Assembly: GCA_965287045.1 (NCBI GenBank) | Contig: OZ336875.1 | Span: forward strand, 54,250,001-54,314,000 | Reading direction: 5' to 3' | Source: Carcharhinus amblyrhynchos | Lineage: Eukaryota | Length of the DNA: 64,000 nucleotides | Shown here: positions 1,339-62,933 of the stretch, one piece after another | How the letters are laid out: the number at the start of each line of letters is the position of its first letter | Position numbering within the stretch: position 1 is the stretch's first letter | Notes under the pieces: model-generated | What the model saw: only the letters and a program-made list of their open reading frames with translations | The model's database searches: none | What the model was told of the DNA's origin: nothing | Translations under genes and position numbers: made by a program

Positions 1339-1952
1339 ACAAAGAACAATACAGCACAGGAACAGGCCCTTCAGCCCTCCAAGCCTGCGTCGCTCATGCG
1401 CCCAACTAGACCATTCATTTGTATCCCTCTATTCCCAGTATGTTCATGTGGCTATCCAGATAAGTCTTAAACGATCCCAGCATGTCCGCCTCAACCACCT
1501 TGCTTGGCAGTGCATTCCAGGCCCCCACCACTCTCTGTGTAAAATACGTCTCCCTGGCATCTGTGTTGAACCTTGCCCCCCTCACCTTGAACTTGTGACC
1601 CTTGTGTTCATCACCTCCGACCTGGGAGAAAGCTTCCCACTGTTCACCCTGTCTATGCCCTTCATAATTTTATACACCTTTATTAGGTCGCTCCCCATCC
1701 TCCATCTTTCCAGGGAGAACAACCCCAGTTTACCCAATTTCTCCTCATAGCTAAGACCCTCCATATCAGGCAACATCCTGGTAAACCTTTTCTGCACTCT
1801 CTCTAATGCCTCCACGTCCTTCTGGTAGTGTGGTGACCAGAACTGGACGCAGTATTCCAAATGTGGTCAAACCAACGTTGTATATAGCTGCAACATCATA
1901 TGCCAACTTTTATACTCTATGCCCCATCCAATAAAAGCAAGTATGCCATATG
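1337..1952 (-). mobile_element. CR1 LINE 3' end (ORF2 C-terminus + 3' UTR), outer element
   Basis: ORF 1582-1860 EYCVQFWSPHYQKDVEALERVQKRFTRM is CR1 ORF2 C-terminus; 3' tail cctgtgctgtattgttctttgttc on minus strand. Confidence 0.95.
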
Positions 1953-3395
1953 GCGGAGGTGATAGTGGATGCCTTGGTGGTTATTTTCCAGACGTTGCTG
2001 GATTCCGGGGAAGTGCCAGAAGATTGGAAAGCGGCTAATGTTACGCCGTTGTTTAAGAAGGGTGCCAGGCAAAAGGCAGGGAATTATAGGCCGGTTAGTT
2101 TAACGTCTGCTGTAGGTAAAATGTTAGAATCCGTCATCAAGGAGGAAATAGCGAGGCATCTTGAGGGGAATTGCTTGATAGAGCAGACGCAGCACGGTTT
2201 CGTTAAGGGGAAGTCGTGTCTGACAAATTTACTTGAGTTCTATGAGTATGTGTCTAGGGCGGTGGATAGAGGAGAGCCAGTGGATGTGGTCTTTCTTGAT
2301 TTTCAGAAGGCGTTTGACAAGGTACCTCACAAGAGGTTATTGCAGAAGGTCAGGGGACATGGAGTTGGGGGTGGGGGGTTAGTGTGGATAGAGGATTGGT
2401 TGTCAAATAGGAGGCAGAGAGTGGGGGTCAATGGGTGCTATTCGGATTGGCGGTTGGTGACTAGTGGAGTGCCTCAGGGGTCGGTGCTGGGGCCTCAGCT
2501 ATTTACCATTTATATAGATGATCTGGAGGAGGGAACCGAGTGTATGGTGTCGACATTTGCTGATGACACCAAGATTGGTGGAAAGGCAAATTGTACGGAG
2601 GGTGTGGAGAGTCTGCGGAAGGATCCAGATAGGCTGGGCGAATGGGCCAGGAACTGGCAAATGGAATTTAATGTTGGCAAGTGCGAGGTGGTACACTTTG
2701 GTAGGAATAATGGTAGGAAGGATTATTACTTACGTGGAGAAAAACTGCAGCAGGCGACGGTGCAGAGGGACCTCGGGGTCCTTGTGCATGAGTCACAAAA
2801 ACCCAGCTTGCAGGTGCAGCAGGTGGTCAGGAAGGCGAATGGGATGCTGGCCTTCATAGCGAGGGGGATTGAATATAAAAGTAGGGAGGTCTTGCTGCGG
2901 CTGTATAGGGCATTGGTGAGGCCGCAGCTGGAGTACTGTGTGCAGTTTTGGGCGCCGTACTTACGCAAGGATATTTTGGCCTTAGAGGGAGTGCAGAGGA
3001 GGTTTACTAGGCTGATGCCGGAGTTGAGGGGGTTGAGCTATGAGGAGAGGCTGAATAAACTAGGCTTGTACTCATTAGAGTTTAGAAGAATGAGGGGAGA
3101 TCTCATTGAGACGTATAAGATGATGAATGGGATGGATAGGATAGAGGTGGAGAGACTCTTCCCGCTCAGAAAGGACAGTAGGACTAGGGGGCACAGCCTC
3201 AAGATAAAGGGGGGGCGGTTTAGAACAGAGTTGAGGAAGAACTTCTTCACTCAAAGGGTGGTGAATCTCTGGAATTGTCTGCCCGTTGAAGTGGTGGAGG
3301 CTACCTCGCTAAATATTTTTAAGAAGCGGGTTGATGGGTTTTTGATAAGAGAGGGGATTAAGGGTTATGGGGAGAGGGCGGGAATGTGGAACTGA
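1950..3395 (+). CDS. CR1 ORF2 reverse transcriptase domain, uninterrupted 481 aa (5'-truncated element, no endonuclease)
   Basis: Motifs NYRPVSLTS, QHGFVKGKSCLTNL, FLDFQKAFDKVPH, GVPQGSVLGPQLF, FADDTK; no stops or frameshifts. Confidence 0.95.
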   Translation: MAEVIVDALVVIFQTLLDSGEVPEDWKAANVTPLFKKGARQKAGNYRPVSLTSAVGKMLESVIKEEIARHLEGNCLIEQTQHGFVKGKSCLTNLLEFYEYVSRAVDRGEPVDVVFLDFQKAFDKVPHKRLLQKVRGHGVGGGGLVWIEDWLSNRRQRVGVNGCYSDWRLVTSGVPQGSVLGPQLFTIYIDDLEEGTECMVSTFADDTKIGGKANCTEGVESLRKDPDRLGEWARNWQMEFNVGKCEVVHFGRNNGRKDYYLRGEKLQQATVQRDLGVLVHESQKPSLQVQQVVRKANGMLAFIARGIEYKSREVLLRLYRALVRPQLEYCVQFWAPYLRKDILALEGVQRRFTRLMPELRGLSYEERLNKLGLYSLEFRRMRGDLIETYKMMNGMDRIEVERLFPLRKDSRTRGHSLKIKGGRFRTELRKNFFTQRVVNLWNCLPVEVVEATSLNIFKKRVDGFLIREGIKGYGERAGMWN

Positions 3396-15269: not shown

Positions 15270-15460
15270 ATGGCTTTCCTCTGGGTCCTCCAGTTTCCTC
15301 CCACAGTCCAAAGATGTGTAGCTTAGGTAGATTAGCCATGTAAATGCACAGGGTTATGGGGATAAGGCGACGGAAGGGCTTGGATAGGATGCTCTCTGAG
15401 GGTCAGTGCAGACTCAATGGGCCAAATGGCCTTTTTCTGCTCTGTAGGGATTCCATGGTT
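15270..15460 (+). mobile_element. V-SINE/HE1-like SINE (5'-truncated) with CR1-type tail
   Basis: ccagtttcctcccacagtccaaagatgtg...gggccaaatggcctttttctgctctgtagggattc. Confidence 0.85.
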
Positions 15461-27977: not shown

Positions 27978-28292
27978 GTGGTGGCACAGTGGTTAGCACT
28001 GCTGCCTCACAATGCCAGGGACCTAGGTTCAATTCTGGCTTCGGGTCACTGTCTGTATGGAGTTTGCATATTCTTCCCATGTCTGGGGGGGGATTCCTTT
28101 GGGTGCTCCAGTTTCCTCCCACTGTCCAAGAATGTGCAGGTTAGGTTGATTGGCCATGCTGAATTGGCCCTCGTGTTCGGGGGATTAGCAGGGTCACAGG
28201 GTAAATGAGGGTAACAGGAATAGTGTCTGAGGGGATTGCAGTCAGTAGAACTCTATGGGCCGAATGGCCTCTTCTGTACTGTAGGGATTCTA
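27978..28292 (+). mobile_element. V-SINE/HE1-like SINE
   Basis: gtggcacagtggttagcactgctgcctcaca head to gggccgaatggcctcttctgtactgtagggattct tail. Confidence 0.9.
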
Positions 28293-28347
28293 ATCTGTGA
28301 GTACCCCAATAGGAGCTCTTACCTTTACTGAGAAGGTAATAAAATCA

Positions 28348-28670
28348 GTGGGGTGACACAGTGATTGGCACTGGTGCCTCACAGCACCAGAGATCCGGAT
28401 TCAATTCTTGTCCTGGGTGACTGTCTGTATGGAGTTTGCATGTTCTCCCGTGTCTGTGTGGGTTTCCTCCGAGTGCTCTGGTTTCCTCCCACAGCCTAAA
28501 GATGTGCAGGTTAGGTTGATTAGCCATGTCCAAAAATGTGCAGGATTGGGGTTTTAGCAAGTTAAGTACATGGGGTTACAGGGATGGGGGTCTAACTTGG
28601 ATGTTCTGTCAAAGAGTTGGTGCAAATGGGCTGAATGGCCCCGTTCTGAACTAGTGACTCTATGATTCTA
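28348..28670 (+). mobile_element. V-SINE/HE1-like SINE
   Basis: Same head, core and tail as the preceding copy. Confidence 0.9.
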
Positions 28671-30255: not shown

Positions 30256-30264
30256 GAACATCAT

Positions 30265-30570
30265 ACGGTGACACGGTGGTTAGCACTGCTACCTCACAGC
30301 GCCAAGGACCCAGGTTCAATTCCTGGTTTGGGTCATGTCTGTGTGGGGTCTGCGCATTCTCCCTGTGTCTGCTTGCATTTCCTCCCAGTGTTCCGGTTCC
30401 CTCCCACAGTCTGAAAGATGTACTGGAAAGGTGGATTGGCCATGTTAAATTCTCCCTCAGCATATCCAAACAGGTGCCGATGTCTGGCGACTTGGGGATT
30501 TTCACAGCAACTTCATTGCAATGTTAATGCAAGCCTAGCTGTGACACTAATAAATTTAAAACTTAAACTA
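30265..30570 (+). mobile_element. V-SINE-like SINE with alternative 3' tail
   Basis: Standard head and core, then ggggattttcacagcaacttcattgcaatgttaatgcaagcct...gtgacactaataaa, same tail as 1085-1160. Confidence 0.85.
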
Positions 30571-39666: not shown

Positions 39667-40822
39667 GGGCCCGATTTTACCATTTTGATTCTTAGTGCTG
39701 AATCTGGGAGTGTTTCAGATCCGACTTTTAGCCCCATTCTCCAGCGCCTCCACACACACGCTGCCTGAAAAAAAGCAACAATTCCGAATCATGCTGTAGA
39801 AGTGTGTGGGCGGAGCTTATTGCGCCCAAAACCCTGCAGCTCCGATCAGACCCTTCAACTGCGCATATGCAGTAAAAAAAGTAGAAAAACGCTCCTCTGC
39901 CACAACACTTCTGGGCCCGATATTTCCTCCCCCTGGCCCCCAGAGACATTGCCCCCCCCACCATATAAGTGACCTCCTTATCCTACCCAACCCCCACTTG
40001 CCAGACCAATCGCAGCCCCCGCCCCCATCCCCAGCCCACCGATTGTACGCAGAGTGGCAGGGAATCCCCCTTCGCCGCCACCAATCGCCACAGAGTGGCA
40101 GTGGACCCCCACCAGACAGCTATCTGACCCACTTCCCTCACCCCCCCACCAGACAGCTATCTGACCCACTTCCCTCACCCCCCACCAGACAGCTATCTGA
40201 CCCACTTCCCTCACCCCCCCACCAGACAGCTATCTGACCCACTTCCCTCAACCCCCCACCAGAAAGCCACTTGACCTGCCTTCCTCCTCTCCCCCGACCA
40301 AACAGCAATCTGACCCTCCTCCCTACCTCCTACCAGAGAGCCATCAGACCTGCCTCCCTCCTTCCCCCCACCAGAGAGCCTTCTGACCAGCCTCCCTCAC
40401 CCCCTCCCCGCATTAGACAGACATCTGACCCACCTCTCTCCTTCCCCGCCCCACAACCCCACCGCCAATCTGAGTTAGAGAGCGGCTGGAACCTCTGAAC
40501 TTACCTCCTCAGAAGCTGGAGCATCTGAATCAGACCTTTGCAAACCATGTCTGTTTCGCATCAAATCTGGTCTGGCGAACACAGTGGTAAAGGGGGAAAT
40601 GCCAGTAAGTTTGGGTGTCCAGCCCATTAAGTCAATTTAAATGCATGCAAATACATTTAAATTGATGTTTTCGGTCATGGTGTCAACAGCAGCCATTTTA
40701 GGCCCTTGGTATAGCGAGAACGGGAGCGGAGGCAGTCGCAGATCGCGCTAGTCACTTCACGCCTGACTTTACCAAATTTTTACGCCCAAAAATGGGTGCA
40801 ACTTGATGGTAAAATCGGGCCC
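39667..40822. mobile_element. GC-rich MITE with perfect 17-bp TIR gggcccgattttaccat
   Basis: gggcccgattttaccat ... atggtaaaatcgggccc; same family as 22672-24064. Confidence 0.85.
40111..40440. repeat. Minisatellite, 36-37 bp unit, 4 near-perfect plus ~4 degenerate copies
   Basis: accagacagctatctgacccacttccctca(c)n starting at 40111, 40148, 40184, 40221. Confidence 0.95.
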
Positions 40823-47272: not shown

Positions 47273-48692
47273 ACAGGGAATTTTTTTTTTCATTTTATAT
47301 TCAATTCAATCCAATCAAGTCCAATTCAAAGTCTCAGCAAGTGAGACATTACTGATCCAAGCTGACAGGCCAGCCTCTTCCTGTCCTGGGCTTGATCTAC
47401 ATGATCCAAGCTGATTGGAGCAGGCATTGCACCACCATCAAGGCTTGATCACATCTGCATCTTAGCCAAATGTGCAGGATGCACTTGGTCTTAACCAAAA
47501 GGCCAAGATGCAACAGGATTTTTTTTTGTTTATATCCAATTCAATCCAAAGTCTAATTCAAAGTCTCAGCAAGTGAGACATTCCCGATCCAAGCTGACAA
47601 GACAGGCTGGCCACTCCTGTCCTGGGCCTGATCTATATGCTCCAAGCTGATTGGAGCAGGCATTGCACCTCCTCCAAGACTTGATCTCATTTGCATCTTA
47701 GCCAAAACACCGAGATGCCACTTTAAAAAATTGTTTCAAATGAAGCCTCATTGTAACCTTATGACTTCAACCAAGTGTAGCACAGCAAAACTACACTTGA
47801 CCTTAACCAAAAGGTCAAGAAGTGACAGGGATTTTTTTTCAAAAATATACTTTATTCATATACTCTGAAACAAACCATTATGGAAACAACATTTCCAATC
47901 ATTACAACCAGTGCAAAACACAATCATATTTACAATTTCCTTAACTTGAACATTTTACAGTGCTTAGTTCCAAGACATTGCATGCATTACAGTTCAGCTT
48001 TTCAGCAAACTATATACATTCCTCACATATCACTGCTTGCTGTTTTTACAGAGTCGCACACAGATACATAGTCCAAGGGTTTGAAGCGACAGGGAATTTT
48101 TTTTGCATATACATCCAATTCAATCCAATCAAAGTCCAATTCAATCCAAAGTCTAATTCACAGTCTCAACAAGTGAGACATTCCCGATCCAAGCTGATGA
48201 GACAGGCCAGCCGCTTCCTATCTTGGGTTTGATTTACAAGATCCAAGCTGATTGGAGCAGGCACTGCGCCACCTCCAAGACTTGATCCCCATTTGCATCT
48301 TAGCCAAAAGGCCAAGATGCCACTATTAAAAATTGCTTCAAATGAAGCCTCAGTGTGACCTCATGACTTTTTTTTAAACTTTATTCCAATCCAATCAAGT
48401 CAAATTAAACCCAATTCAGAGTCCCAACAAGTTGGGACATTCCCGATCCAAGCTGACAAGACAGGGCTCTCACCTCCTGTCTTGGGCTTGATCTACATGA
48501 TCCAAGCTGACTGGAGTAGGTGTAGCTCCTCCTCCAGGGCTTGATCTTATTTGCATCTTAGCCAAATGGCCGAGATGCCACTTTAAAAAATTGCTTCAAA
48601 TGAAGCTGAAATGTAACCCAATGACTTCAACCAAGTGTAGCATGTCGATACTACACTTGATCTTAGCCAAAAGGCCGTGTGACCTCATGACT
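47273..48692 (-). mobile_element. Tandem/nested array of four U2-snRNA-headed, poly(A)-tailed short retroposons (SINEU-like)
   Basis: Units at ~47281-47518, 47519-47831, 48097-48367(+48677-48692), 48368-48676; U2 nt 10-40 exact at 48647-48677; poly(T) at each unit start on plus; TSD gtgtgacctcatgact at 48353-48368 and 48677-48692. Confidence 0.88.
47832..48082 (-). mobile_element. 5'-truncated LINE 3' UTR (probably Tx1/L1 clade) with 13-bp TSD
   Basis: Ends atgaataaagtatatttttgaaaaaaaa; TSD gaag(t/c)gacaggga at 47819-47831 and 48083-48095. Confidence 0.7.
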
Positions 48693-49588: not shown

Positions 49589-50880
49589 CATAGAACAAAG
49601 AAAATTACAGCACAAGAACAGGCCCTTTGGCCCTCCAAGCCTGCATTGACCATGCTGCCCAACTTAACTAAAACCCCTACTCTTCCAGGGACCATATCCC
49701 GTTGTTCCCATCCTGTTCATGTACTTGTCAAGATGCCCCTTAAAAGTCACTAATGTATCCGCTGCCAGTACCTCCCCTGACAACGAGTTCCAGGCACCCA
49801 CTACTCTCTGTGTAAAAAATCTGCCTCGTACACCTTCTTTAAACCTTGTCCCTCACACCTTAAACCTCTGCCTCCTAATAACTGATTCTTCCACCCTGGG
49901 AAAAAGCTTCTGACTATCCACTCTGTCCATGCCTCTCATAATCTCATAGACTTCTATCAGGACTCCCCTCAATCACCGTTGCTCCAGTGAGAACAAACCA
50001 AGTTTCTCCAACCTCTCCTCATAGCTAATGCTCTCCATACCAGGCAACATCCTGATAATTTTTTTTTGTACCATCTTCAAAGCCTCCACATCCTTCTGGT
50101 CGTGTGGCAACCAGAATTGAACATTATATAATGTGGCCTAACTACGGTTCTATAATGCTGCAACATGACTTGCCCATTTTTAAACTCAATGCCCCGGCCA
50201 ATGAAAGCAAGCATGCCATATGCCTTCTTGACTACGTTCTCCACCTGCATTGCCACTTTCAGTGACCTGTGTACCTGTACACCCAGATCCCTTTGCCTAT
50301 CAATACTCAGAAGGGCTCTGCCATTTACTATATTTCTTATGTGTATTAGACCTTCCAAAATGCATTATCTCACATATTAAACTCCATCTACCATCTCTCT
50401 GCCCAGTCTCCATCTGATCTAAATCCTGCTGTATCCTCTGATGGCCCTCATTGCAATTCACAAATCCAGCAACCTTTGTGTCATCTGCAAACTTACTAAT
50501 CAACCCAGTTACATTTTCCTCCAAATCATTTATATATATTACAAACAGCAAAGGTCCCTGAGGAACACCACTTGTCATAGCCCTCCATTAGAAACGCAAC
50601 CTTCCACTGCTACCCTCTGTCTTCTTTGACCGAGTCAGTTTTGTATCCATCTTGCCAGCTCACCTCTGATCCCATGCGACTTCCTTCACCTTCTGCACCA
50701 GTCTGCCATGAGAGACCTTATCAAAGGCCTTACTGAAGTCCACGTAGGCAACATCCACTGCCCTAGCCTCATCAATCATCTTCGTCACTCCCTTGAAAAG
50801 TTCGATCAAGTTCATGAGACATGACCTCCCCTTCACAAAACCATTTTGCTTCTCACCAATACGTCCACTTATTTCCAAGT
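49589..50880 (-). mobile_element. Degenerate CR1 RT + 3' UTR
   Basis: YVDFSKAFDKVSH, GVPQGPLLFVIYINDL, KFADDTK; same subfamily as the outer CR1 at 1337-5248. Confidence 0.95.
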
Positions 50881-62639: not shown

Positions 62640-62933
62640 CACGGTGGCACAGTGGTTAGCATTCCCGCTTGGGTCACTGTCTGTATGGAGTTTGTACATT
62701 CTTCCCGTGTTTGCATGGGGCGAATGTACAAACTCCTCCTGGTGCTCCGGTTTCCTCCCACAGTCCAAAGATGAACTGGTTAGGTAGATTGGCCATGCTA
62801 AATTGCTGCTTAGTGTCAGAGAGATTAGCAGGGTAAAACATGTAAGGTTGCAGGGATAGGACTTGGGCGGGATTTTTGTCGGTATATATGCAATGTGCTA
62901 AGTGGCCTTTTTCTACACTATAGGGATTCTATG
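62640..62933 (+). mobile_element. V-SINE/HE1-like SINE inserted into a DeuSINE-like element (~62440-62995)
   Basis: SINE head, core and tail; flanks ccaggacttgagcataaaaatt / tgcagtagtacttagggagtgctgcactgtcagaggtgc (Deu domain). Confidence 0.8.

Follow-up and report, generated by a model that had tools for sequence, protein, structure and literature searches.

Four related copies of a dispersed element stand in tandem on the minus strand of this locus, and the hairpins that they share differ by compensatory changes. The question is whether the pairing reflects selection on RNA structure in the genes from which the copies derive, as an earlier note on the sequence had proposed. The window analysed here is the whole 64 000-nt stretch of Carcharhinus amblyrhynchos contig OZ336875.1. 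Within it, positions 47280–48677 (minus strand) hold four related retroposon units, A to D, and one LINE end (Table 1). The two tandem modules and third hairpin described in the note are found on the minus strand in D and C, and likewise in B and A; the interval given for them (48097–48560) takes in the hairpins of C and D but not A and B, which lie outside it at 47280–47826. Copy D is 98–100% identical to dispersed copies on many chromosomes and is nested in copy C with a 15-nt target duplication. Its module 1 has a lower stem of 8 bp with a G bulge, followed by a 1x3 internal loop and an upper stem. The hairpin predicted in its head would bury most of the branch-site-pairing stretch; between subfamilies the arm of this hairpin is kept and its loop varies.

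Table 1. Positions of the four retroposon copies, their parts and the associated LINE end in the window
Feature	Position	Strand	Description
Copy D	48368–48677	-	Youngest subfamily (Y4); U2-headed retroposon lacking 9 nt at its 5' end; nested in copy C
D head	48647–48677	-	U2 snRNA nt 10–40; 31/31 identical to the genome's U2 genes
D head hairpin	48629–48662	-	U2 nt 25–36 plus an added complementary arm; pairing predicted by folding
D U4-derived stem-loop	48602–48628	-	Kink-turn motif lost; homologous block of the old subfamily matches U4
D U tract	48585–48594	-	Resembles an Sm site; from its sequence, would stop RNA polymerase III
D second U2 stem-loop I copy	48553–48578	-	Stem extended; alignment to U2 (0/200 shuffles) and predicted fold
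D module 1	48499–48546	-	Duplicate of module 2
D module 2	48445–48493	-	Architecture as module 1; from U2 nt about 21–65, refolded
D hairpin 3	48421–48438	-	U2 stem-loop IIb derivative, from alignment of the old consensus to U2
D tail	48368–48420	-	Decayed U2 Sm-site region, AATAAA, poly-A
Copy C	48097–48370	-	Older subfamily; without head; poly-A tail
C U4-derived loop	48344–48370	-	
C second stem-loop I	48295–48320	-	
C module 1	48240–48287	-	
C module 2	48186–48234	-	Decayed
C hairpin 3	48163–48179	-	
Tx1-type LINE 3' end	47832–48088	-	Same target; between C and B
Copy B	47519–47826	-	Near full-length; middle-aged subfamily
Copy A	47280–47512	-	Older copy, partly deleted
7-nt target motif after each poly-A	48089–48095, 47825–47831, 47513–47518, 47273–47279		

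Elsewhere in the window there are a C-rich minisatellite (40106–40404; 37 bp, 8 copies), dispersed repeats that we take to resemble the V-SINE core (15271–15341, 28043–28542, 30264–30458 and 62671–62811) and a repeat that recurs ∼47 kb apart (1935–3395 and 49890–50860), holds an open frame of 486 codons and probably consists of LINE fragments.

The element whose body carries the hairpins is a SINEU-type retroposon, dispersed in the genome, with a poly-A tail and flanking TSDs. A first look gave at least 3140 candidates, and 0 of 29 random 10-kb stretches contained a copy, which caps the copy number at an estimated 30 000 or so. Full-length copies start at U2 +1 and end in poly-A, and target duplications of at least 9 nt flank 19 of the 29 youngest copies (5/145 in mismatched-flank controls). 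The idea that the retroposon re-uses the U2 target strictly was rejected: all that appeared was a bias for T after the tail (35/58). A single site often holds several copies of unlike age in head-to-tail order, in some cases separated by LINE ends (L015, L021, L023, L047, L053, L089 and L120), and some copies are found no more than 1.5 kb from U4 genes or pseudogenes (L142, L143 and L147). Among the sequencing runs listed, 16 (8 studies, 7 organism labels, one of which may be the source) hold at least half of the sampled words of copy D, so that the family is probably common to related species; runs with small shares were not used, and none of the listed runs holding D is an RNA run.

For the comparison of copies, 250 raw matches were reduced to 204 distinct ones, of which 198 were long enough for alignment. 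The copies are top BLAST hits, sorted into subfamilies by hand; the older subfamily came to light when a divergent neighbouring copy was used as query. A single genome, and within it a single lineage, accounts for all events. Eight serial subfamilies were distinguished, with divergences of 11.8, 9.5, 7.3, 6.5, 4.7, 2.5, 1.6 and 0.3%, ages that are biased low because only top matches were taken. The 198 aligned copies have a common fixed structure and are not independent chimeric retrocopies. The oldest subfamily has the signal AATAAA; the middle subfamilies have it in altered form, and in the youngest it is back, followed by the same three letters as in the LINE tail.

The earlier note had also considered an unknown structured ncRNA; as to origin this finds no support, since the body aligns to the genome's own U2 snRNA. 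A search of the window with Rfam covariance models (ribozymes, SECIS, IRE, 7SK and others) returned no family at gathering score, and within the element U2 alone matched (E up to 5), at 33–38 bits against a cut-off of 46 bits. The old consensus aligns to nt 36–84 of the genome's U2 over the 3' arm of module 2 and hairpin 3 (0/200 shuffles), hence the identification of hairpin 3 as U2 stem IIb, and its module 2 and tail align to U2 nt 23–112 (0/500 shuffles). The C-G state of hairpin 3 is the U2 state. From these alignments, the U2 5' half, in rearranged form, makes up module 2 and the tail, and module 1 is a duplicate of module 2; module 1 alone aligns best to U2 nt 31–55, not significantly (250/500 shuffles). 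In the lower stem, a repeat of U2 nt 25–31 pairs with a descendant of stem IIa; the fold predicted for U2 nt 1–90 has no such pairing. Three other assignments were discarded: a U4 3' stem-loop identity for hairpin 3 (the alignment is to U2 IIb, not to U4), the module-1 loop as U2 stem-loop IV, as suggested by the Rfam alignment (the module aligns best within the U2 5' half), and a U4 origin of the Sm-like U tract (a 9-nt match, not significant; 107/300 shuffles).

Judged by alignment, the older subfamilies carry the U4 5' stem-loop (old consensus against U4 nt 23–47, 23/25 matches; 0/300 shuffles); the match is no longer significant in copies B, C and D. A kink-turn (3-nt bulge followed by tandem G·A pairs) is present in the OLD and INT consensuses, has a shortened bulge in MID and is lost from Y0 on, and thus from copy D. 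The heads of old copies are either U2 or U1-like, the latter giving weak Rfam matches below the cut-off in 4 of 10 loci (E = 0.077–1.5), and a U1 head is likely. Directly 5' of several full-length copies there is a 3'-truncated U2 piece (L244, L247, L249 and L202), as expected from template jumps to U2 RNA, a likely route of head renewal.

Both compensatory swaps reported between the units are real: D carries C-G in both places, against U-A in hairpin 3 of A–C and in module 1 of B and C. However, each is a single event on one lineage that passed through a C·A mismatch, so that D against A–C represents one branch with two events and not replicates. More swaps are found deeper in the family. Over the subfamilies, the first upper pair of module 1 was successively C-G, C·A, U-A, C·A and C-G and its neighbour G·U, U·U and U-A; pair 4 of hairpin 3 was C-G, U-A and C-G with a few C·A copies between, and module 2 gained a C-G from U·G. 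The loops, said to vary freely, do so in module 2 but not in module 1, where the loop is near-unchanged from the oldest subfamily to Y0 and changes only later. The 1x3 loops and bulges were never erased across subfamilies. None of 100 shuffles folds as well as copy D (z = −6.7), and the fold of copy C is weakly above chance (8/200 shuffles as good; z = −1.7).

Substitutions fixed between successive consensuses from INT to Y4 were compared with mutations private to single copies. The former number 9 in stems and 20 at unpaired positions (80 and 46 sites, respectively) and the latter 392 and 191 (P = 1.7e-4), private mutations being counted in 168 non-OLD copies with columns containing shared variants dropped. 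This test takes its structure from the youngest consensus (Y4) and includes two artefactual CpG changes, both of which were removed in a repeat with the structure fixed from INT (12 stem and 15 unpaired against 424 and 159 private; P = 0.0035); both tests leave out the OLD-to-INT step. All 39 pairs of Y4 are Watson–Crick, a state reached by none of 20 000 neutral simulations, and for the two noted swaps alone, 44 of 100 000 simulations of four stem changes keep all pairs. With the INT structure, 39 of 44 pairs were kept (reached by 72/3000 simulations), the five lost being at loop-closing or end positions. Folding energy was likewise kept (−52.6 against a simulated mean of −33.9; 0/600 neutral simulations). 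Decay of inserted copies is neutral, at 3.2% for stem and 2.9% for unpaired positions. The interpretation given in the note is supported in part: a constraint on structure in the source lineage persists once subfamily history is accounted for, the check by which the note would have been refuted, with stems depleted in changes and broken pairing restored. The constraint on source-lineage structure is real but soft, because sources with a mismatch (C·A, U·U) were active as well: C·A is carried by 23/23 INT and 9/9 Y3 copies, as first grouped.

Could pairing have been kept by mutation instead? Fold-back template switching may repair imperfect inverted repeats, and A-to-I editing would turn C·A into C-G before reverse transcription. 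Both noted swaps end with A to G opposite C, and template switching is described as able to create and fix RNA stems (10.1101/2021.04.15.439925). However, inserted copies display no such repair: Watson–Crick pairs show 527 one-sided departures against 9 two-sided pair-keeping changes, decay is equal in stems and loops, and A>G is about as frequent as T>C (68 and 63). Furthermore, no copying event ever removed the asymmetric loop beside the repaired pair, the remaining repairs (C>T, T>A, G>A and T>C) are not of the editing type, and C-G occurs in 0 of 7 C-bearing copies of the older marker background. We regard this explanation as improbable.

A constraint acting on DNA would be a further possibility, either through hairpins of first-strand cDNA during priming or synthesis or through the invariant lower stem as a transcription-factor site. 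All three resolved swaps pass via C·A and not via the G·U expected under sense-RNA selection, and a sense C·A is a T·G on the opposite strand. The antisense strand also folds 1–5 kcal/mol better from Y0 on, and lower stems never change, so that sequence and structure constraint are indistinguishable there. Against this stand the better folding of the sense strand in the three oldest consensuses, the long-lived G·U pairs on the sense strand (head hairpin and U4-derived stem) and the derivation of the element's parts from RNA genes; we hold a constraint on DNA to be improbable as well.

All subfamily consensuses contain T4 and T6 runs, which argue against transcription by polymerase III, as for SINEU (PMC4494074). 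A source gene was sought in the U2 arrays. A variant U2 gene forms a 407-bp tandem array (C98 and C334), separate from an array with a 10.5-kb unit (C45), of which one unit was seen. In near-complete readings of contigs C98 and C334, 487 U2 heads were counted (a few of them twice), and the body follows none of them. A pattern search for full-length copies with three given upstream bases gave 8 matches, none with a full promoter upstream. Among these, all 5 with a one-base gap share the next base of the 407-bp array as well, and thus the same four upstream bases; three of the five follow a 3'-truncated U2 piece. Given the selection built into the search pattern, these bases are a weak hint of a U2-type promoter.

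The same upstream bases, the start of full-length copies at snRNA +1 and the near-linear succession of subfamilies with falling divergence would fit a source that is one domesticated cellular RNA gene, its shape held by host function and the copies being by-products. BC1 is an analogous source gene for rodent ID elements. On the other hand, over the history of the family the head was replaced (U1-like to U2), the kink-turn was lost and the tail was rewritten several times, several loop variants coexist in the middle subfamilies, and no source gene was found among the 487 array heads. A single domesticated source appears unlikely.

A first look gave 485 candidates for the family of the LINE end between copies C and B; 17 of 19 loci of this family align at 67–84% to a LINE inserted in U2 genes, the window fragment itself doing so over two short pieces only. 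The LINE in the 407-bp arrays has intact ORF1 and ORF2, with Pfam domains of a zinc-knuckle ORF1 and an endonuclease-RT ORF2; ORF1 (L282:923–2179) matches both ZCCHC3 RNA-binding domains of Pfam. It interrupts 43 of 409 U2 heads examined (one counted twice), and 44 of 44 poly-A junctions are at U2 nt 39. In part of the array ∼1 in 10 U2 genes is interrupted in this way, with target duplications of 0–19 nt, and another stretch is near-free of insertions (1/78). The retroposon lies within 3.2 kb of 6 of 19 dispersed LINE relatives (0/29 random 10-kb stretches), and a LINE piece is present at 11 of 176 retroposon loci (0/20 random stretches). No body sequence is common to LINE and retroposon, only the AATAAA neighbourhood being shared (oldest and youngest subfamilies), and the oldest head stops at ∼U2 nt 35 and does not reach the LINE site. 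The mobiliser is likely the Keno-like Tx1 LINE found in the U2 genes.

On balance, we lean slightly towards the explanation that the source lineage kept its hairpins paired because folded RNA is what the Keno-like Tx1 LINE copies well. The source copy would be transcribed by RNA polymerase II, probably from a U2-type promoter, and its RNA would fold into two like modules, in each of which the 1x3 loop and bulge may form a protein-binding or stabilising unit; the modules would also bury the stretches of U2 that pair in the spliceosome. The ORF2 protein of the LINE would then prime on the poly-A tail, and better-folding sources would out-reproduce others, which places selection at the level of the element and not in inserted copies. 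Folded RNA is, on this model, likely needed for copying, and the suggestion that the hairpins are protein-binding or RT-recruitment modules is plausible. Counting against copying by the LINE as the cause are the C·A route of the swaps, the better antisense folding in young groups, the missing source and the loss of the kink-turn without loss of activity. A bolder proposal, which we make with considerable doubt, is that the tandem bulged hairpin, a new fold arising from duplicated U2, is a module that loads a polymerase II retroposon RNA onto the U2-targeting LINE or a host RNP. Spliceosomal parts would in that case have given rise to an equivalent of Alu's SRP9/14 domain, which possibly now serves as a cellular shark RNA.

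The available part of Kojima (2015, PMC4494074) leaves transcription and recognition of SINEU open, with old crocodilian copies only and no transcript. These questions become testable in the shark, whose family is very young (0.3% divergence): its U2 arrays hold an intact LINE that is a candidate partner, and its source sequences form a dated series with natural mismatch intermediates. The same series documents clearly how an RNA fold arose from a known snRNA and was maintained by stepwise compensation.

In the same part of that study, SINEU-1, -2 and -3 are found in crocodilians and none outside. The shark element resembles them in several respects: (i) U1- or U2-derived heads, repeated 5' snRNA additions, partial duplications and a length <500 bp, (ii) internal T runs, poly-A tail, target duplications and tandem insertion and (iii) a Tx1 partner related to Keno, here a likely one. 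As far as that part of the study goes, it differs in its U4 piece and in a duplicated U2 body predicted to be refolded into new hairpins under measurable constraint, and these features set it apart from a plain further SINEU member. A Mariner target, another possible difference, was not noticed for the shark element. The likeness is one of features; the shark element may have arisen independently of crocodilian SINEU. Our search of openly accessible literature listings yielded no shark SINEU and no study of compensatory changes in SINE source genes; a prior annotation of the family, for example in Repbase or Dfam, is possible.

Like Keno Tx1 as described by Kojima (PMC4494074), the array LINE inserts specifically in U2 genes and has a zinc-knuckle ORF1 and an endonuclease-RT ORF2, a likeness by description. 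With U2 snRNA the element shares, for the upper stem of module 2, the nucleotides that close the branchpoint-interacting stem region (BSL; PMC13019295). It also has stem-loop I twice and stem IIb as hairpin 3 (RF00004). Unlike U2, it scores below the Rfam gathering threshold, its modules are without the branch-site sequence, stem IIa is replaced by a new long-range pairing and the 3' domain is absent. Alu, with its SRP9/14-binding fold, and BC1/ID are likewise derived from small RNAs, and in both the source lineage keeps the RNA fold while copies decay, as here; however, these are polymerase III transcripts that keep the fold of the parent RNA, whereas the fold of the shark modules differs from that of U2.
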